64,000 nt of DNA from Leptolinea sp. UBA5203. GTDB taxonomy: Bacteria; Chloroflexota; Anaerolineae; Anaerolineales; Anaerolineaceae. This document shows positions 46,926 through 55,490 of the stretch, piece after piece; position 1 is the stretch's first letter, and each line of letters opens with the position of its first letter. The stretch covers positions 73,191 through 137,190 of the forward strand of contig DHVR01000002.1 of assembly GCA_002412765.1 (NCBI GenBank), in the 5' to 3' direction. Both the position numbers and the translations under genes were made by a program. The notes beneath the pieces are model-generated. The model saw only the letters and a list, made by a program, of their open reading frames with translations. It did not search any database and was not told the origin of the DNA.

Positions 46926-47285
46926 ATGGATCATGTAATTATTAAGAACTTAATGGTGCGGGGCGTGATTGGCATTTCGGATCACGAGCGGCGGGAACGA
47001 CAGGATATTGTCGTCAATGTGGACATGAGCGCAGATTTACAGGTAGCCGGCGAAAGTGACAATATTGAGGATTGTGTCAATTATCGCACGGTTTCCAAAG
47101 AGATCATCAAGCATGTGGAAACCCGCGGAAGGTTTACCGTTGAAGCCCTGGCAGCGGATATCGCTGCAATTTGCCTGGCGCATGACGCCGTACAAAAAGT
47201 AAAAGTGCGCATAGAGAAACCAGGCGCGGTGCGTTTTTCTGAATCCGTGGGTGTGGAAATTATCCGCAAAAAGGTGAGTGGATGA
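46926..47285 (+). CDS. folB: dihydroneopterin aldolase
   Basis: 119 aa. The pattern IKNLMVRGVIGISDHERRERQDIVVNVDM....DNIEDCVNYRTV is typical of FolB. ATG 46926 follows GGAG. Confidence 0.85.
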   Translation: MDHVIIKNLMVRGVIGISDHERRERQDIVVNVDMSADLQVAGESDNIEDCVNYRTVSKEIIKHVETRGRFTVEALAADIAAICLAHDAVQKVKVRIEKPGAVRFSESVGVEIIRKKVSG

Positions 47286-47761
47286 ATCATTCCGTGTATT
47301 TGATTCTCGGCAGCAACATTGAACCGGAAAAGAATACATTGCAGGCAATTCGGTTTTTATACAGGGTGTGCAACCTTGTAAAGGTATCATCTACTTGGGA
47401 AACCGTCGCAGTGGGAAGTGATGGCCCTAATTTCCTAAACACGGCTTTATGGATTGAAACCCCGCTTAACGCAGAAGAAATCAAAACTACGATCATTGCT
47501 GACCTGGAAAAACAGTTGGGCAGAATCCGTACCACGGATAAAAATGCACCCCGCACCATTGATCTGGACATTGTTATTTACGATCAGACTCTGCTGGAAC
47601 CTGCCTTATGGAAGAAAGCCTTTATTGCTATTCCCATGGCGGAATTAATCCCGGAGTACCCTCATCCTGACGGGAAAGGTACCTTGAAGGAGTTTATCCA
47701 TCAATTTGAGGGACAGAACCTGGCTTTTCTTTATCCTCTACCGATAGAAAAATTTTCCTGA
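47282..47761 (+). CDS. folK: 2-amino-4-hydroxy-6-hydroxymethyldihydropteridine pyrophosphokinase
   Basis: VYLILGSN and RTIDLDIV motifs are present in 159 aa. The start overlaps the folB stop by 4 nt. Confidence 0.9.
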   Translation: MNHSVYLILGSNIEPEKNTLQAIRFLYRVCNLVKVSSTWETVAVGSDGPNFLNTALWIETPLNAEEIKTTIIADLEKQLGRIRTTDKNAPRTIDLDIVIYDQTLLEPALWKKAFIAIPMAELIPEYPHPDGKGTLKEFIHQFEGQNLAFLYPLPIEKFS

Positions 47762-50036
47762 TTGGTTTGTCATTTTGCATCACGGAATAGCGTTTAAAAA
47801 GAGTTCGCTGCCTGGCAGGTTGTTCTGCGGCAGCGATTTTTTTTATCACCAGACGCAGCAGCATCTCTTCATCCATGCCAAAGGAAGTGAGAATGGTCGA
47901 GACGGCACGCAGCAGCAATTTAAGATAAATCTGCTGATCCGGCAGGGAAGGCGTGTGGGATAGGGGCATATCCCAGGCCTGAATGCGCGGGGGATGCTGC
48001 ATGAAGAGAAATTTTATCGTCTGCCCGGGACGGATGGTTTTACCGGCTGCCACCATCTGTGCGGCGGCTTTGGCTGCCGGAGAGGGGGAATGGTAGTCGT
48101 CCAGTTCGCGGCTGATTTTTTGCGTGACCAGCAGTTTTTCCAGCGAAATCCGGCCTCTTTTTAATTTTTGTACTTCCTGCTGCAAGTATTGAATAATTTT
48201 CGGCTGCAAGGATGGGAACTCCTCCAGGCTGGGCAGGGCAGCAATCTGCTCCAGCAGAGTTTGTTGAATTTCGGCAATCCAGAGCGGGGTATCCCGGCGG
48301 CGCAATTCAATGCCGCGCAATTTCAAACTACCGTCTTCAAAGACGCCAAAATAGCGGTTGGCCACCGGAATTTGATCATTGCCTTTGGAGGGCAGGAAAA
48401 CAATCCAGCGGAAAATGCCGTCTGCGGCGATGGGCAGTCCGGTCCGCTGTTGAATGGCTTCAAGCAGCGGTTGAAGGGTTTCCAGGGTGATGAGGGTCGG
48501 CGATTTAATCCACAAACCGTCGACGTACATATGCAGGATGGAGTAGCCCATTTCTTCTGCGGTCTCTTTGGCACGCATCAAAGACTCGCGTCCATAGGCC
48601 GTAACGGCCTCGTGAGCCTCGATACGGCCGAAACGGGCATTCTTGTACCCAAGATAGCCAAAACAGGTCACCAGCAGCCATTTATGGGCTGAGGACTGGG
48701 CTTTGTAAACCTCGTAGGCCGGGTCCCATTTTTCCAGGGTTGCCAGGGTTTGCTTAATTCGCACCCGTTTTTGCAGCAGGGGCGCCAGGGTGTTGGGGAT
48801 CAATCCCTGGGGTTTCTGATGTTGATCTTCAACAAAGTCTTTGCTGCCCGGGGTGCTGCTGAAGGTTTCCGGGGAGATGTTTTCGTGCACCATGATGCTG
48901 GGATACATCGAAATAAAATCAATCCCGGCCACGTTTTCGTGCACGCCTACCGTGGGCTGATAGACCAATCCGCCCAGATCGGTATGGATCAAATCCAAGG
49001 CGGTTTTGGTGTTTTCCGCCTGCTGTTTGTGCCAGGGGACCAGAACACCCTGTCGGAGGGCGGTGGTCATTTGCATGGCAGAGATGCCGCTGCCTGGGGA
49101 GACTCTGGCGACGGTCTGAATGGGCAAGCCGGTGACGCGTGCCAATTCCAGGATGCCATCCACCTGGTAATCATGAAAGAGGGTGGCGTTGTGAATGTCG
49201 ATGTGCCAGCGTCCAAAGAGGTGGATCTGTTGATCGCGGTAGATGGTTTGTCCGTAGGAGAAATACACCAGATCATTTTTGCGTAAAACGGTTTGACGCG
49301 TGTCGCGGTTCAGGGGCAGGAAAATATTATGGATGCGGCTTTGTTCCATCAGGTGCGGCATCAGCCAGCCGTCTCCCCAGGCGGTCAGAATCAAATCCGG
49401 GTCGTATTGCTGCAGCAGACTGCACAGGGTGATCAGCATGACGCGGACTGGATTGAGTTTGACTTTTCGTTGAATGCCGTTTTGATGCAGGATCAGACTG
49501 AGCGGTGTTTGATGGCGCGGGGACTGATCGGGCTCCATGGAGAGGATTTTGATGGGCGGCCGGGTGACTGAGAGTTCCCAGGGCGTTTCCAGCACGCTGA
49601 TCTGCTGCAAAGTATTCAGCTCGTCATGTTCGATGCTGCAATAGCAAAGGGGAAAGGTGTTATGCAGACTGGCGTGGCGCAGGGAGAGGGTCACATCCGC
49701 GTCAAAATAGTCCAGATCCGGAAATTTGGCGGAAAGCGCCTTGAAGACCTGCGGCTGCTGGGCGGGGGAACGCACCTCCACGGCCAGCACGGCGATGGGC
49801 TGGGGCTGGAAAATGTCCTGTCTCTCCGTGCGGTATAGCTTCAGTTCATAGGGCATGGCTTTCAGCATCTTCCAGGCTTCGCGCAATTGGCGGGTATCCC
49901 CGGCGGCATAGAAGGTGATCGGGAAGGGCTGAAACAGGCGCAGACGTTCCCCATCCTGGTCCAAAAACCACAGCGTAATGCCCGGTTTTTCCGGGTCGGG
50001 GTATAAGTCCATCAGCCAGCCGTTGCGCCTACTCAT
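47694..50036 (-). CDS. family-B DNA polymerase, divergent (exonuclease motif II and several polymerase motifs substituted)
   Basis: Motif A is IDFISMYPSI, motif B KWLLVTCFGYLGY and motif C HMYVDGLW. The NRY...RGIELRRRD region is present. The N-terminus is archaeal-PolB-like (WLMDLYPD...ITLWFLDQDGERL), and the Exo II region reads DPDLILTAWGDGWLMPHL. Confidence 0.85.
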   Translation of the reverse strand: MSRRNGWLMDLYPDPEKPGITLWFLDQDGERLRLFQPFPITFYAAGDTRQLREAWKMLKAMPYELKLYRTERQDIFQPQPIAVLAVEVRSPAQQPQVFKALSAKFPDLDYFDADVTLSLRHASLHNTFPLCYCSIEHDELNTLQQISVLETPWELSVTRPPIKILSMEPDQSPRHQTPLSLILHQNGIQRKVKLNPVRVMLITLCSLLQQYDPDLILTAWGDGWLMPHLMEQSRIHNIFLPLNRDTRQTVLRKNDLVYFSYGQTIYRDQQIHLFGRWHIDIHNATLFHDYQVDGILELARVTGLPIQTVARVSPGSGISAMQMTTALRQGVLVPWHKQQAENTKTALDLIHTDLGGLVYQPTVGVHENVAGIDFISMYPSIMVHENISPETFSSTPGSKDFVEDQHQKPQGLIPNTLAPLLQKRVRIKQTLATLEKWDPAYEVYKAQSSAHKWLLVTCFGYLGYKNARFGRIEAHEAVTAYGRESLMRAKETAEEMGYSILHMYVDGLWIKSPTLITLETLQPLLEAIQQRTGLPIAADGIFRWIVFLPSKGNDQIPVANRYFGVFEDGSLKLRGIELRRRDTPLWIAEIQQTLLEQIAALPSLEEFPSLQPKIIQYLQQEVQKLKRGRISLEKLLVTQKISRELDDYHSPSPAAKAAAQMVAAGKTIRPGQTIKFLFMQHPPRIQAWDMPLSHTPSLPDQQIYLKLLLRAVSTILTSFGMDEEMLLRLVIKKIAAAEQPARQRTLFKRYSVMQNDKPIRKIFLSVEDKEKPGSVPQIDG

Positions 50037-50286
50037 CGAGAACTTCGCTTAGGGCATCCTGAAGCTGGCAGACTTTTTTGTGTTCTTCCAGCAGCATGGC
50101 CAGTAGGAAGATTTCGAAGGGCAGTGCGTGGGTGGCATAAGCGGCGGCGGCGAGGTGCTTTTGTGCTTCGGCAAATAGATCATCCAAAATCAGTTGATCA
50201 CTTTTGCGCAGCGCGCGCCGGAATTTGGAGAAAGAACTCTGCTCGTGTAAAAATTGTTGAGTAATGGAAGGTAATGTGCGTCCCAT
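50029..50286 (-). CDS. 85-aa predicted all-helical protein, unknown function
   Basis: Its stop overlaps the PolB ATG (ATGAGTAG), and it starts 19 nt after the upstream gene. I recognise no motif. Confidence 0.5.
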   Translation of the reverse strand: MGRTLPSITQQFLHEQSSFSKFRRALRKSDQLILDDLFAEAQKHLAAAAYATHALPFEIFLLAMLLEEHKKVCQLQDALSEVLDE

Positions 50287-50305
50287 GGGTTTTCATCCTG
50301 TACCT

Positions 50306-50842
50306 TTAAAAGAAACGATAATTTTCAGGCACCGGGGCCTGTTCCAATTGAAATACTTCATCCGTGTATTGACGCACGGCGGCGATCCAGCCCGCATAGT
50401 TCTCGTTTTTGGATACCCCGCAGCTAATGGCCACCGGCACATCCTGACTGAGGTGCTTCAGGCAATCCAGAGATTTCCTCAGCAGCCGTTCGCGCTCTTT
50501 GCTGGATGTGTGCTCGTCGTAAAACATATCCAGCAAGTCCAGCACCAGGATGGGCATGCGCGGATTATCCAGTGTTTCCAGGCGGGTGAGGACCTGGTAG
50601 CAGGTGAAGACCCGCGAAAGTTTGATGTTTTCCAGCAGGGGATTCACTTCTTCCGTGAGGCGACGGATTTCCCGGGCGATGGTGTAGGGACGAAAGGCAT
50701 TGCCGGCGTCGATAATAAAGAGTTCACCTTTCAGGGCTAATCTGGCGATCAACTGCGGCATGAGGTTGTGCAAATAGCTTCTGGGCGCATTGAGCAGCAG
50801 TAGTCTTTTCTCGGATAAGGAAGGGTATTGAATTTCATTCAT
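50306..50842 (-). CDS. RecA-fold (SulA/ImuA/RadA-paralogue-like) protein without a Walker A P-loop
   Basis: NIKLSRVFTCYQVLTRLETL......ILVLDLLDMFYDE matches the '..h.v.R.f...q....l..l......lvviDs....y..' strand pattern of RecA/RadA/KaiC cores. The expected GxxGxGKT position reads LNAPRSYLHNL. Confidence 0.5.
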   Translation of the reverse strand: MNEIQYPSLSEKRLLLLNAPRSYLHNLMPQLIARLALKGELFIIDAGNAFRPYTIAREIRRLTEEVNPLLENIKLSRVFTCYQVLTRLETLDNPRMPILVLDLLDMFYDEHTSSKERERLLRKSLDCLKHLSQDVPVAISCGVSKNENYAGWIAAVRQYTDEVFQLEQAPVPENYRFF

Positions 50843-50932
50843 AGGCTTATCCTATCTGCTTCTGTGCCAGGGCGGCTATCCCCCGCGTGGGGGATAAAAG
50901 CGGTTAAAAAGGATTACCCCTTTTTTGTCCGG

Positions 50933-51343
50933 TTAATATTGCCAGGCACTGAAATCCCATCCGGCCAGCTCCATGATTAGGGCCTGTTTTTTACACAGTC
51001 CAAATTTGCCGAGGATATTGCGTACGTGGGTCTTGACGGTCTCTGTCGCAATCCCCAGCTTGAGGGCGATCTCCTGATTACTGCAGCCCTTACAAACCCA
51101 AATGGCAACCTGCTGCTCCCGTACGGAGAGGTCCTGCCAGTGGATACTGTTGTATTGGATTTTCCTGCGTTCTTCAATGGCAAAGCGCAGCAGCCGCGCT
51201 GCCAGTTCACTGGGGGAACAATTTTCCTGACTTGCCAGGCTGATCAGGGTTTCATGCAGTTCCGGATCCAATTCAAGGGGCATGTCAGGTTGGATATTAA
51301 AAATAGTTTGGGTCATTGCAGCCAGATCTCTCATCTTTATCAC
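50933..51343 (-). CDS. small transcription regulator with a C-terminal LuxR/GerE HTH and a possible N-terminal ribbon-helix-helix
   Basis: The C-terminus (LSVREQQVAIWVCKGCSNQEIALKLGIATETVKTHVRNILGKFG) is a GerE HTH. The N-terminus (LELDPELHETLISLASQENCSPSELAARLLRFAIEE) looks CopG/RHH-like. The start is GTG 51343 or ATG 51334. Confidence 0.8.
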   Translation of the reverse strand: MIKMRDLAAMTQTIFNIQPDMPLELDPELHETLISLASQENCSPSELAARLLRFAIEERRKIQYNSIHWQDLSVREQQVAIWVCKGCSNQEIALKLGIATETVKTHVRNILGKFGLCKKQALIMELAGWDFSAWQY

Positions 51344-51362
51344 CAGGGGAAAGGGTACTTAA

Positions 51363-51391
51363 ATTATATAGAACAAATGTTCTTGTGTCAA
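51363..51391 (-). promoter_or_regulatory. consensus sigma-70-type promoter (TTGACA-17-TATAAT) of the LuxR-type gene / PolB cassette
   Basis: Read on the minus strand, the -35 TTGACA is 51391-51386 and the -10 TATAAT is 51368-51363. The spacer is 17 nt (CAAGAACATTTGTTCTA). Confidence 0.6.
51370..51383. promoter_or_regulatory. candidate LexA (SOS/Cheo-type) operator
   Basis: AGAACAAATGTTCT is a perfect 14-nt palindrome of the form GAAC-N4-GTTC. It lies entirely within the promoter spacer. Confidence 0.6.
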
Positions 51392-51535
51392 TAGGAAATA
51401 CAATCTTCTTCAGGACGGGGTATTTCGTCTGGTTTTGAAAAGTAGCTGGTTATTTTTTGTTTTTTCGCACTATTTTTCTTAGTTTTTAATTGGGATTATC
51501 CGTTATGATAGAAAAGAACTTTTTGGAGGAGCTGC

Positions 51536-53152
51536 ATGTCCGCAAAACCCTTAAAAATATTTGTGTTTGTATTCCTTCCATTGTTGAGCCTGCTTGTTGT
51601 CAACCAGGTAACGCAGAACAGCATTGCCTTTATTCGCACCATTCTGGCTGCGGCGCCTATTCTGATCGTCCTCGTGGTGATGATTGTCTTTCATGTTGGC
51701 GGACAGGTTGCCGGTCTGATTGGCCTGCTCAGCGGATTGCTGGTTGCATTTCAAGCTTTTGGCCTGACCAGCAATATCTTGATTATTTCCCAGGTAAAAG
51801 GGCTGCTGCTTTTTTTGTTTGTTCTGGCAGTTTTTTTGCCGGCTTTATTTCTATATAACATTGTTAATCAAGCCAGGGGTATTCAATCCATTGCTCTGGC
51901 TCTGGAAAACAGGATTCAGGATCGAGGCATCTTGCTGATTGTCATTGCCTGGGCTTTCAGCGGGATGTTGGAAGGTCTGGCGGGTTTTGGGCTACCCGTG
52001 GCCATGGTTTCCCCAATGTTGGTTGAATTGGGATTGAATCCCATTCTGGCCGTTGCGGCTGTTGCCATTGGGCACGCCTGGTCGGTTACCTTTGGCGATA
52101 TGGGCGTGATTTACCAAACGCTCATCTCAGTGGTAAAGGTTGCTCCGGCGCAATTATCCGTATTTGCGGCCATCTTCCTGGGGATTTCCTGTCTGGCTTG
52201 TGGATTGTCGGTGGCGCACATATTAAAGCGCTTGAACAAATGGCCCATTGTGCTGGTCCTTGCTCTGGTCATGGCCTTCGTGCAGTATGCTTTTGTGATG
52301 CTGAACATTGCTGCCCTGGCGAGTTTTTGTGCCGGGTTGGCGGGTGTAAGTGCTGCAATACTGATCAATCACATCATTATGAAATCTAAAAATGAAAAAA
52401 GCGCCCCCATGGAATGGACGCCGTCCTTGAAAATGGCCCTCTTGAGTTATGGCTCCCTGACCGTTCTGATGAGTCTGATTGCTATTGTCCCGCCTCTTCA
52501 TCAGGCTTTGGGAAAAATATCCTGGGTTGTGGCCTACCCCGAAGTGACCACCTTGCGTGGCTTTACTACGGCGGCGGTGATTAATCAACACTATTATCCT
52601 TTACTGCATCCGGGGACATCCATCTTGTTGATTGCTTTGATCAGTTATTTTCTGAATAAACGGGCGAAACTTTATTCGTCAACGAATCTCATGCATATTG
52701 TTTCCATCACTGTGAAAGCAGCTTTGCCGCCAGCGATTGGAATTCTCTCCATGGTGGGGCTTTCGTTTCTCATGGATCACAGTGGTATGACGGTTCAACT
52801 GGCTGAATTGTTAAGTAGTTTTTTTAATGCAGCCTTCCCGTTAGTTTCACCTTACATCGGCATGTTGGGCGCCTTTGCTACCGGAAGTAATAATAATTCC
52901 AATGTTTTGTTTGCTCCCCTGCAAGAGGGGATCGCGATCCTTCTGAAAATCTCGCCTGCGGTGATTGTGGCTGCCCAAACGACGGGCGGTGCATTAGGCA
53001 GCATGATAGCCCCAGCCAAAGTGATTGTGGGCTGCAGCACAGTGGCAGCCCAGGGTCGGGATGGAGAAGTTCTGCGCAAGACCATTCCCTATGGCCTGGT
53101 CATCGGGCTGGTGATGGGAATTGTGACCATGCTATTTGCAATGAATAATTGA
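51536..53152 (+). CDS. L-lactate permease (LctP) family transporter
   Basis: 538 aa and polytopic. LctP-like segments are present (GHAWSVTFGDMG, GAFATGSNNNSNVLFAPLQ, AAQTTGGALGSMIAPAK). ATG 51536 follows GGAGGA. Confidence 0.75.
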   Translation: MSAKPLKIFVFVFLPLLSLLVVNQVTQNSIAFIRTILAAAPILIVLVVMIVFHVGGQVAGLIGLLSGLLVAFQAFGLTSNILIISQVKGLLLFLFVLAVFLPALFLYNIVNQARGIQSIALALENRIQDRGILLIVIAWAFSGMLEGLAGFGLPVAMVSPMLVELGLNPILAVAAVAIGHAWSVTFGDMGVIYQTLISVVKVAPAQLSVFAAIFLGISCLACGLSVAHILKRLNKWPIVLVLALVMAFVQYAFVMLNIAALASFCAGLAGVSAAILINHIIMKSKNEKSAPMEWTPSLKMALLSYGSLTVLMSLIAIVPPLHQALGKISWVVAYPEVTTLRGFTTAAVINQHYYPLLHPGTSILLIALISYFLNKRAKLYSSTNLMHIVSITVKAALPPAIGILSMVGLSFLMDHSGMTVQLAELLSSFFNAAFPLVSPYIGMLGAFATGSNNNSNVLFAPLQEGIAILLKISPAVIVAAQTTGGALGSMIAPAKVIVGCSTVAAQGRDGEVLRKTIPYGLVIGLVMGIVTMLFAMNN

Positions 53153-53230: not shown

Positions 53231-54283
53231 CTAAGCCCTTGCCGTTTGAGCCAGCACAACCCATGGGTAGATTTCCAGTGCATGGATTTTAATTTTGGAA
53301 TTGGAGGTGGTGATTTGCAGCAATCCATTGTCAAGCAGAAGTGGAGTTTCCATACAGTCGGCACCCAGTGAAGTGAGGCGTTTTGCCAGGTCCAATAGAA
53401 AGTGATGGCTGGGCTCTAAAGAAGTAGTTAGAAAAAGGAGCTGTTGGGCGCCATTGAGCCCGGCCATGCCGCTGCCGATTTGCTTGAGCAGATGGTTTTG
53501 CAGCCTTTCCCGGCTTATCTGATGTTCTTTCGGCATAGTGTTTTGAATCAATGTGTCCAGCCGCATCAGTTGGGGATCCAGCGCCTGAAAACCGCTTTGC
53601 AGGGTCAGCACCTGCAGGGCTTGATCCACACTCATGCCGTCCTCGCACAGCAATAAAGACAGGGATGGATCGATGCTGCCTACGCTAGTCAGGCCAGGGA
53701 TGCCCTCCAATTTGGAGAATCCGCTGGAGCACTCCACAGCAATTCCGCGCTGGATGACGGCTACGGATGCGGAAAACTCATCCAGGAAGACCGTGATCAA
53801 GCGATCACTCTGATCAGGATAAGCTGCTCTGATGAGCCGAGAGCCGTATTGATGATAGATTCCATCCGACCCGTAGCGTTGAATCTCAGGATAGCGAAGT
53901 TCCTTTGGGAGCGCATAGCCATGGGCGGTTTGCGGCATATGCTGGAAAAAAGCTGTGTTGCAAAGCAGGATATGGCGCAGCTCTGGCCGCATGGTAACCA
54001 TCTGAAAGACGGTATTCATTAGCAAGGTGTTTTCAAAAGGGGCAAACTTCTGCATGTCCTGTAAAAGACTTAGCATGCCCGGGGTCAATTCTGTAACGGC
54101 TTCGTTGAACTCAGGTCCGCCATTTTCAAGTAAATAGACGGCTTCTTCGGCTTCTTCCACAGCATCCATCAGCTCGGCAGGAAAGGGCTGCTCTGGTAAA
54201 AGTTTCCCGCAGCGGATCAAGTAGTCCTGATCATTCAGTTCTGCCCAATCCATGTGGTAAGGCGTGGTTTTAAAGATCAGCAT
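53231..54283 (-). CDS. degenerate acetate/propionate-kinase-family (ASKHA) paralogue
   Basis: It aligns by eye with the acetate-kinase core. RYGSDGIYH matches YGFHGTSH, GLTSVGSIDP matches GTRSGDIDP, and SKIKIHALEIYPWVVLAQTA matches SKVKVLVIPTNEELMIARDT. It lacks the N-terminal NxGSSS motif. The start overlaps the upstream gene by 14 nt. Confidence 0.6.
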   Translation of the reverse strand: MLIFKTTPYHMDWAELNDQDYLIRCGKLLPEQPFPAELMDAVEEAEEAVYLLENGGPEFNEAVTELTPGMLSLLQDMQKFAPFENTLLMNTVFQMVTMRPELRHILLCNTAFFQHMPQTAHGYALPKELRYPEIQRYGSDGIYHQYGSRLIRAAYPDQSDRLITVFLDEFSASVAVIQRGIAVECSSGFSKLEGIPGLTSVGSIDPSLSLLLCEDGMSVDQALQVLTLQSGFQALDPQLMRLDTLIQNTMPKEHQISRERLQNHLLKQIGSGMAGLNGAQQLLFLTTSLEPSHHFLLDLAKRLTSLGADCMETPLLLDNGLLQITTSNSKIKIHALEIYPWVVLAQTARA

Positions 54284-55490
54284 GCTTCACCTCCTGGAGT
54301 AAATTGAAACCATCCCGGGCGATGATGCTTTCTTCGTCTGTTGGCAGAACCATTACGCGTACCGCTGATTTGGCGGTTTGAATTTCTGAAAGACAATCCA
54401 GCGGGGCAGTCCGGTTTTTTTGTTCATCCAGTTCAAGCCCCAGCCAATCCATCTTGGCACAGGTTAAGTGACGAATGGCGGGGTTTTGAAGTCCAATATC
54501 ATCGGTAAAGACCAGGATATCCAGCCCCCCCAGAATGGCTGCGTAGGCGCCGATATATTTTTTCAGGCGGTGAATCAACAGGTCAATGGCAGCCTGTGCT
54601 TCTGGATTATGCTGTTCATCCGCTGATTTGAGGATATCGCGGATATCACTGGAAAAACCGGATAGACCCAGCAAACCGCTATTTTTATTAAAGATTTGAT
54701 TTAGCTCGCTGGCGGTATGGTTATGCACCTGCATCAGGTAGAGGGGGATAAATGGATCCAGGTCCCCGCAGCGGGTGCTCATCACCAGACCTTGCAGAGG
54801 TGTATAACCCATGGAAGTATCCACTGGTTTACCATTCTTGATGGCAGTGATGCTGGAGCCACCGGTGCCCAGATGGCAGGCAATGATCTTCAGCGGGGCT
54901 AGATCCAAATTCAGCGTTTGGCTGATGTGTTGAAAGATATAAGTGTATGAGAGGCCGTGAAAGCCGTAATGGCGGATGTCATGCTGTTTTGTAAATGCAT
55001 TGGGCAGGGTCTCTAAGGCGGCAATATCCGGCATCTGGCTGTAAAAGGTGGTATCGAAGGTGACATATTCGGGCAAGCCGGGGTAGGACTGCTGGCAGGC
55101 ACGAATTACACTGTAAGAATTGGGGTTATGAATGGGAGCCAAAGGCAGACATCGTTCCAGCGCGGGAGTAGTTAGGGGAGTGATCAGAGTGGAGCTAGTA
55201 AACAAAGAACCGCCATGCACAAAACGATGGCCGATAGCATCAAACTGGATATCCAGCTTTTGCAGCATTTGGATGATTTGTCCGGCGGCCTGGGCATGGC
55301 TGTCAAGCTGCATGGGGACAACGGTATGCTGCCCATCCTGATTTAGCTCAATAAAGGACTCTTCTGTGCCTTTCACACCTACTCGATGGGCTTTCCCGTG
55401 CAGCAGGATTTTCGGGGTTAAAGAAGAGTCGACAGAAAAAAGTTTAAACGATAGAGAAGAAGAACCACAATTAAAGATGAGAAGTTTCAT
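54270..55490 (-). CDS. acetate-kinase-family protein (atypical active site)
   Basis: It has LIFNCGSSSLSF, GHRFVHGG, APIHNP, FDTTF, YGFHGLSY and STRCGD. However, HLGTGG replaces HLGNG and DDIGLQN replaces AGIGEN. Confidence 0.8.
   Translation of the reverse strand: MKLLIFNCGSSSLSFKLFSVDSSLTPKILLHGKAHRVGVKGTEESFIELNQDGQHTVVPMQLDSHAQAAGQIIQMLQKLDIQFDAIGHRFVHGGSLFTSSTLITPLTTPALERCLPLAPIHNPNSYSVIRACQQSYPGLPEYVTFDTTFYSQMPDIAALETLPNAFTKQHDIRHYGFHGLSYTYIFQHISQTLNLDLAPLKIIACHLGTGGSSITAIKNGKPVDTSMGYTPLQGLVMSTRCGDLDPFIPLYLMQVHNHTASELNQIFNKNSGLLGLSGFSSDIRDILKSADEQHNPEAQAAIDLLIHRLKKYIGAYAAILGGLDILVFTDDIGLQNPAIRHLTCAKMDWLGLELDEQKNRTAPLDCLSEIQTAKSAVRVMVLPTDEESIIARDGFNLLQEVKHADL

Follow-up and report, generated by a model that had tools for sequence, protein, structure and literature searches.

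The stretch of DNA analysed here, 64,000 nt of Leptolinea sp. UBA5203 (assembly GCA_002412765.1, contig DHVR01000002.1, positions 73,191 to 137,190; hereafter the window, in which all positions are counted unless a related locus is named), carries on its minus strand the genes iRadA, PPB2, and PolB2, with a small gene for a GerE-type regulator ahead of them. We consider it probable that this locus is a chromosomal Anaerolineae copy of the bacterial PolB2 mutasome operon which is regulated through a LexA box and whose products act together in translesion synthesis. The iRadA-PPB2-PolB2 gene set as such has already been described, and the locus of the window is a further member of it. A preliminary description of the window, made from the sequence alone, had treated the combination as undescribed; this does not hold, since the trio of PolB2, arCOG07300/PPB2, and an inactivated RadA was described in 2014 and its heteropentamer was modelled in 2025, and Anaerolineae loci belong to that dataset.

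PolB2 (Dpo2), a helical protein of approximately 90 aa (arCOG07300), and an inactivated RadA were recognised as a conserved predicted operon of archaea by Makarova, Krupovic, and Koonin in 2014 (PMC4104785). In the same study a linkage of the three families was also seen in several bacterial genomes, in part with lexA as a further gene of the operon, and a role connected with DNA damage was inferred (PMC4104785). The names PPB2 and iRadA were introduced for the partners by Timinskas, Timinskas, and Venclovas (2025), who observed iRadA-PPB2-PolB2 as the sole order in bacteria and modelled the complex as a PolB2:iRadA:PPB2(3) heteropentamer (PMC11791011). According to this work, the N-terminal MGRT arm of PPB2 represents the key contact and the defining feature, the first Asp of the DxD motif is absent from most PolB2 proteins, clamp-binding motifs are situated mainly at the C-terminus of iRadA, and many operons of Chloroflexota and Anaerolineae are listed with YVD in the published tables (PMC11791011).

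Relatives of iRadA were observed in at least 586 species-representative genomes, of which 80 loci were listed (L001-L080, the related loci in the following); nearly all of these 80 belong to the Anaerolineae or to other Chloroflexota. In 70 of the 73 related loci with sufficient room, iRadA is followed by PPB2 and then by PolB2, and the same three adjacent, co-directional genes occur in this order in the window. The co-occurrence of the 178-aa, 85-aa, and polymerase genes, for which the preliminary description had proposed a survey of gene neighbourhoods, is therewith found in the relatives. The four minus-strand open reading frames which it had placed here are all present at their positions (Table 1), and the overlap it had noted between the stop of the 85-aa gene and the start of the polymerase gene amounts to 8 nt. 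Its view of the four genes as one unit has to be given up: the core consists of three genes, the regulator gene adjoins iRadA in 35 of 75 related loci, and half of the regulator's relatives stand alone.

A few related loci deviate from the common arrangement. Decayed or disrupted copies without PolB2 after iRadA are given by L024 and L039, and in case of L057, a contig with masked bases, PPB2 was undetected. In L063 (9419-10513) a fragment of an IS66 transposase is situated between the box described below and iRadA, so that this copy is disrupted; an N-terminally extended iRadA of 364 aa, considered for the same locus, was rejected, the extension being this transposase fragment read in frame. 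The short loci L007 (3.8 kb) and L029 (3.5 kb) contain Anaerolineae-type cassettes and are filed under metagenome-assembled genomes of Bathyarchaeota and Gammaproteobacteria, which are probably binning errors.

The 178-aa protein encoded by iRadA shows a weak match to Pfam Rad51 (3e-4). Its family profile found RadA among the PDB structures at 8e-6, and its AlphaFold model (pLDDT 75) had the ATPase cores of RadA, Rad51, and DMC1 as top Foldseek matches (6e-6). The position of Walker A is occupied by NAPRSYLHN, a GxxxxGK[ST] motif was not present in the family alignment, and the invariant residues D45-x-G47-N48-x-F50 align with the 'IDTENTFRP' segment of RadA rather than with Walker A. The iRadA of the window is a RadA/Rad51 core which lacks the N-terminal domain and the ATP-binding residues, and the RecA fold without a P-loop that had been read from its sequence was right. 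The family comprises 1727 representative clusters, and most relatives end in QLPLF or PLRLF, a beta-clamp-type motif, of which the C-terminal ENYRFF of the window protein is a degenerate form.

All 76 PPB2 homologues identified in the related loci begin with MGRT, and the window protein begins with MGRTLPSITQQF. The 85-aa protein itself had no match in local Pfam and NCBIfam scans, in which case PF26485 (DUF8156) was seen via the precomputed annotations of its homologues; among the 3478 homologous clusters this family is annotated on all of the 120 listed. By its MGRT arm and by the PF26485 annotation of its homologues the protein is assigned to PPB2. Across L001-L080, PPB2 typically shares 60-80% identity with the window protein (range 47-98%), compared to 34-50% in most loci in case of iRadA and about 50% in case of PolB2. 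A conservation so far above that of its two partners is unusual for an accessory protein of 85 aa. Weak matches to PHROG families without assigned function (phrog_16666, phrog_26583, and phrog_30126) were also obtained for both iRadA and PPB2, which accordingly have homologues in sequences classed as viral.

The polymerase was identified by Pfam DNA_pol_B (5e-33), and its best NCBIfam matches are archaeal-type PRK05761 models. By BLASTP it shares 40% identity with the N-terminal 130 aa of a published Chloroflexota PolB2 (MDK2981188.1, 2e-34) and 66% identity over motifs B to C with a Myxococcota PolB2 (1e-29), and on this basis it appears to group with the published bacterial PolB2 proteins. 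Alignment to archaeal PolB structures placed HMYVDGLW opposite YGDTDSLF in motif C, the first Asp of the DTD triad being replaced, and DFISMYPS in motif A, which is intact. In the exonuclease domain, NGFD of Exo II is changed to DGWL with loss of the catalytic Asp, and FDIE of Exo I to MEPD with shifted acidic residues; judged from these residues, the proofreading site has apparently been lost. The YVD and the other motif states are conserved over 64 orthologues. The substitutions reported in the preliminary description for exonuclease and polymerase motifs thus stand in case of Exo I, Exo II, and motif C and fail in case of motif A. An ordinary Pol II, i.e., a single-subunit enzyme with intact exonuclease and DTD, is ruled out by these substitutions and by the NCBIfam Pol II models, which score far lower than the archaeal-type ones. 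A further PolB2 feature, the loop mimicking RadA oligomerisation followed by D(K/R), was not confidently located in the 240-275 region. A QRTLF situated 35 aa from the C-terminus is possibly an internal clamp motif. The G+C content of the PolB2 gene (window 48001-50000) is 0.55, compared to 0.42-0.50 elsewhere in the window.

Given the loss of the first Asp from motif C and the decay of the exonuclease site, the three proteins could form a non-catalytic or regulatory complex which acts at stalled forks, in replication restart or initiation, instead of a translesion polymerase. Clearing of stalled forks or regulation of replication was indeed proposed in 2014, at a time when PolB2 was regarded as an inactive enzyme (PMC4104785), and no assay of a bacterial enzyme was found in the literature searched. 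However, the archaeal Dpo2, which carries a similar change in motif C (IID), is an active polymerase needed for targeted mutagenesis. In addition, hardly any variation is seen over the 64 orthologues in motifs A and B and at the second Asp of motif C, as would be expected of a working active site. A purely non-catalytic complex is improbable in our view, and the reading of PolB2 as a translesion polymerase is followed below.

The regulatory part of this reading is based on the promoter in front of the regulator gene. The TTGACA-17-TATAAT with a GAAC-N4-GTTC in its spacer, seen there before, was recovered: both hexamers agree with the consensus in 12 of 12 positions, the combination is unique in 47000-52000, and the spacer reads CAAGAACATTTGTTCTA on the coding strand. 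Taken alone, the palindrome is of little weight: 0.72 occurrences of GAAC-N4-GTTC are expected by chance per 64-kb window, and 55 of 100 shuffled sequences contained at least one. Because a single occurrence is within chance, it is the conservation of the box in related genomes that establishes it as real. The 14-mer AGAAC-N4-GTTCT was searched with at most one mismatch in the 80 related loci, comparing regulatory zones with the remainder, and was observed 78 times in 41.8 kb of regulatory zones and 40 times in the remaining 1.21 Mb, corresponding to a 57-fold enrichment (Fisher 7e-85). In total, 62 of the 80 related loci possess the box in the regulatory zone; the conservation upstream of related operons that the preliminary description had asked about was accordingly found.

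The position of the box is conserved as well. In 68 aligned upstream regions the common layout is a -35 element (TTGACA or CTTGAAAT), the box, and TATAAT or TATACT, directly abutting each other, with the box fixed between -35 and -10. In loci with a regulator gene the box is located ahead of this gene, in loci without it ahead of iRadA, and in one clade iRadA has its own second box. Tandem boxes, or a box on either side of the -10 element, were observed upstream of iRadA in L035, L037, L056, L060, L062, L066, and L073; such paired boxes suggest cooperative or tighter repression in some lineages.

The same box also occurs at other genes. In about ten loci (among them L009 4171-5371; L014 5571; L022 110; L041 6169; L051 5728; L052 4162) it immediately precedes a gene for a radical-SAM protein of approximately 395 aa. 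The protein is of the rSAM_link_UDG DNA-repair type (7e-84 with the NCBIfam model, under its cut-off), and in the Brevefilum-like clade its gene is located upstream of the PolB2 cassette at a distance of about 5.5 kb. We regard this gene, by its upstream sequence, as a second conserved repair gene under putative control of the box. Furthermore, a gene for a DnaQ-exonuclease/DinG helicase (NF005981, 1.5e-207) in L042 (17246-20295) is preceded at 238 nt by GAAC-N4-GTTC. As would be expected of a LexA regulon, the palindrome overlaps the putative promoter and appears to be shared by orthologous operons and by other repair genes. LexA of Dehalococcoides, a member of the Chloroflexi, has reportedly been shown to use the same motif. 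In Gram-positive bacteria GAAC-N4-GTTC is recognised by LexA (PMC3323433), and LexA is the likely binder of the box here.

From these features we infer the following mode of action. The strong sigma-70 promoter, with its spacer filled by the AGAAC-N4-GTTCT of the Gram-positive/Chloroflexi type, would be occluded for RNA polymerase by a dimer of the repressor, presumably LexA, bound to the spacer. Upon DNA damage, LexA would be cleaved with stimulation by RecA, and derepression of the promoter would lead to expression of all four genes, that of the regulator included. Judging by homology to the complexes modelled for archaea and bacteria, one iRadA and a trimer of PPB2 would associate with PolB2, with the MGRT arm inserted between PolB2 and iRadA. 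A clamp motif at a C-terminus would bring this complex to the beta-clamp, where DNA synthesis could continue beyond lesions or mismatched termini in the absence of proofreading. Assembly, clamp recruitment, and lesion extension are borrowed from the genetics and biochemistry of archaeal Dpo2 and from published models. A multi-protein module of a PolB with crippled exonuclease and an ATPase-dead partner of the RecA superfamily behind an SOS-type operator fits both published studies (PMC4104785, PMC11791011) and the conservation of the box, and the damage-inducible translesion module guessed at in the preliminary description was largely right.

Several observations weigh against this reading. 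Neither lexA nor recA was detected by tblastn with LexA of E. coli and B. subtilis and RecA of E. coli in the window or in 160 loci (L001-L080 and L085-L164, the latter being metagenome loci from a scan with the regulator family alignment), the related sequence amounting to approximately 1.5 Mb. The clamp motifs of the window are degenerate (ENYRFF in iRadA) or internal (QRTLF in PolB2), the polymerase match to NCBIfam NF004416 (1.6e-115) is under the curated cut-off, and, with the first Asp of motif C missing, activity of PolB2 is assumed solely by way of the archaeal enzyme. Experiments on any bacterial PolB2 operon were not found in the literature searched.

The regulator was identified by Pfam GerE (7e-15), and its model reached a pLDDT of 85.6. 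The C-terminal half superposes on the DNA-binding domains of NarL, VraR, and LiaR within 0.6-0.9 A (Foldseek) and is preceded by a conserved N-terminal domain of about 45 aa; a ribbon-helix-helix fold considered for the N-terminal part is unsupported, Foldseek having resolved the GerE domain alone. The reading frame starts with GTG; the ATG at 51334, which is preceded at six bases by GGTGA, would serve equally well. Among 69 regulator relatives with upstream sequence from the metagenome scan, 68 carry the box with at most one mismatch (for an example of the arrangement see L083 1800-1850), and iRadA comes next in 28 of the 56 relatives with downstream room. Stand-alone regulators have downstream neighbours that share no relationship with one another, and no second conserved partner was observed among them. 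Because nearly all relatives carry the box and half of them are followed by iRadA, the regulator gene is to be seen as a box-controlled gene in its own right; the mutasome transcript appears to begin with it frequently, but not in every case. In L005, L009-L016, L021, L022, and others the regulator ATG occurs 6-8 nt past TATACT or TATAAT, and the transcripts there would have little or no leader, in contrast to the longer one of the window copy.

These data could be taken to mean that the GerE-type regulator itself, and not LexA, has the palindrome as its operator. It would then be autoregulated and, in the position held by lexA upstream of iRadA in other phyla, would be this lineage's controller of the PolB2 operon and a few repair genes. 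No lexA was seen in the window and in the loci scanned, GerE-family dimers such as DosR bind 5-N4-5 palindromes, no gene is tied more tightly to the box than that of the regulator, with or without a PolB2 operon downstream, and in the published neighbourhood table GerE (127) is more frequent beside group-1a operons than LexA (76) (PMC11791011). Nevertheless, the motif is exactly the established LexA box of the Gram-positive type, and the regulator contains no cleavage or sensor domain that could couple it with DNA damage. In about 30 loci the box immediately precedes iRadA, and a regulator gene is missing over a distance of 10 kb; SOS genes should bear the box whether they encode regulators or not, and the absence of lexA from the 1.5 Mb sampled is uninformative for a single-copy gene. 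Control by the regulator instead of LexA is unlikely. For the regulator we tentatively suggest, as a possibility short of an even chance, that it represents an undescribed, lineage-wide member of the damage regulon of Anaerolineae, either as a second-tier SOS factor or as the binder of the box in lexA's place.

Table 1. Features of the PolB2 locus in the window
Feature	Position	Strand	Characteristics
Sigma-70-type promoter	51363..51391	-	TTGACA 51391-51386, 17-nt spacer, TATAAT 51368-51363
Putative SOS-type operator AGAACATTTGTTCT	51370..51383	.	palindrome AGAAC-N4-GTTCT, fills the promoter spacer; sole GAAC-N4-GTTC in the 64-kb window
GerE/LuxR-type regulator gene, 136 aa	50933..51343	-	Pfam GerE; accessory, outside the core operon
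Intergenic spacer between regulator gene and iRadA	50843..50932	-	two predicted RNA hairpins
iRadA, 178 aa	50306..50842	-	RadA/Rad51 core without N-terminal domain and without Walker A
PPB2 (arCOG07300 / Pfam DUF8156), 85 aa, helical	50029..50286	-	N-terminus MGRTLPSITQQF
PolB2, family-B DNA polymerase, 780 aa	47694..50036	-	DNA_pol_B; decayed exonuclease site, YVD for DTD

The hairpins predicted in the spacer between regulator gene and iRadA are formed by AAAAAAGG..CCUUUUUU and by UAUCCCCC-ACGC-GGGGGAUA (minimum free energy -32.7 kcal/mol, z = -2.35) and may represent a partial terminator or a processing site. A CCCCGCGTGGGGG hairpin resembling that of the window precedes iRadA in L023, L026, and L055. 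An Rfam scan of the window gave no match.

The genes flanking the locus are housekeeping genes, namely lgt, an SDR gene, folB, and folK on one side and genes for lactate permease and acetate kinases on the other. Two adjacent genes of the acetate kinase family are located at 53231-55490, the downstream one of which (53231-54283, 350 aa) covers profile positions 92-381 only and is far more divergent (2e-27 vs 6e-114). An assignment of the cassette to a mobile element, a prophage, or a PolB-using system of anti-phage defence might be based on the weak PHROG matches of iRadA and PPB2 to viral-classed families, on the higher G+C content of the PolB2 gene (0.55 vs 0.43-0.48 in the flanks), and on the ancient transfer from archaea that has been proposed in the literature. 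In the vicinity, however, no integrase, terminal repeats, or phage genes are present, and at least 586 species-level genomes possess the operon at one chromosomal locus each, its conservation looking vertical. PADLOC gave nothing relevant on the window: the HEase match is one of the polymerase domain to an intein-bearing homing-endonuclease model, and the matches of the regulator are weak and lie over the helix-turn-helix. With neither mobile-element nor relevant defence signatures at the locus, this explanation was rejected as highly improbable.

The picture of what a PolB2 mutasome is remains unchanged by the locus. New are the conserved operator embedded in the promoter, which is shared with the rSAM repair gene, and the behaviour of the GerE-type regulator. 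Bacterial PolB2 operons are so far known from comparative genomics and structure modelling alone; the promoter-embedded SOS box provides a concrete regulatory prediction which is missing from published work, and damage-induced mutagenesis in the phylum becomes directly testable. Anaerolineae are abundant in sludge, sediment, and digesters, and with approximately 600 species-level relatives the PolB2 operon is a standard feature of this class.

Among the described systems, the locus is closest in composition to group 1a of the published PolB2 operons, with which it shares the three families, their order, the MGRT arm, YVD, the ATPase-dead RadA core, and, in its relatives, the clamp-type C-termini. 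It differs in the link to the SOS response, which is given there by an adjacent lexA and here by an operator in the promoter, lexA being absent from the neighbourhood, and in the GerE regulator, which in the published work appears in a supplementary table only (131, ahead of LexA with 108) without comment (PMC11791011) and here carries the box on its own. Dpo2 of Sulfolobus islandicus is a homologous polymerase that has likewise lost the first Asp of motif C and the exonuclease site and is encoded together with homologues of iRadA and PPB2. According to the reports on it (PMC7390963, PMC8764526), it is damage-inducible, is needed for targeted mutagenesis, extends mismatches and lesions, and is the only PolB2 member with genetic and biochemical data. 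In contrast to the polymerase of the window it is archaeal and shorter, uses PCNA instead of the beta-clamp, and is induced via regulators of the Orc1-2/TFB3 type instead of LexA.

The comparison with ImuA-ImuB-DnaE2 that the preliminary description had raised as a question can be kept as an analogy of operon logic, i.e., a LexA-controlled, multi-protein cassette which combines a RecA-superfamily protein without normal ATPase function with an error-prone polymerase. It cannot be kept as homology: the polymerase is of the C family there and of the B family here, a Y-family ImuB scaffold is missing here and an equivalent of PPB2 there, and the nearest relatives of the RecA-like protein are archaeal RadA/Rad51. 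Membership in the ImuABC cassettes was rejected accordingly, none of the four proteins matching Y-family or DnaE models. Pol V of E. coli (UmuD'2C-RecA), which was compared with PolB2 in PMC11791011, is similarly SOS-regulated and combines a polymerase with a small dimer and a RecA-fold subunit, but its UmuC belongs to the Y family. Pol II of E. coli (polB) shares with the locus an SOS-regulated polymerase of the B family and differs from it as a single-subunit enzyme in which DTD is intact and the proofreading exonuclease is active.

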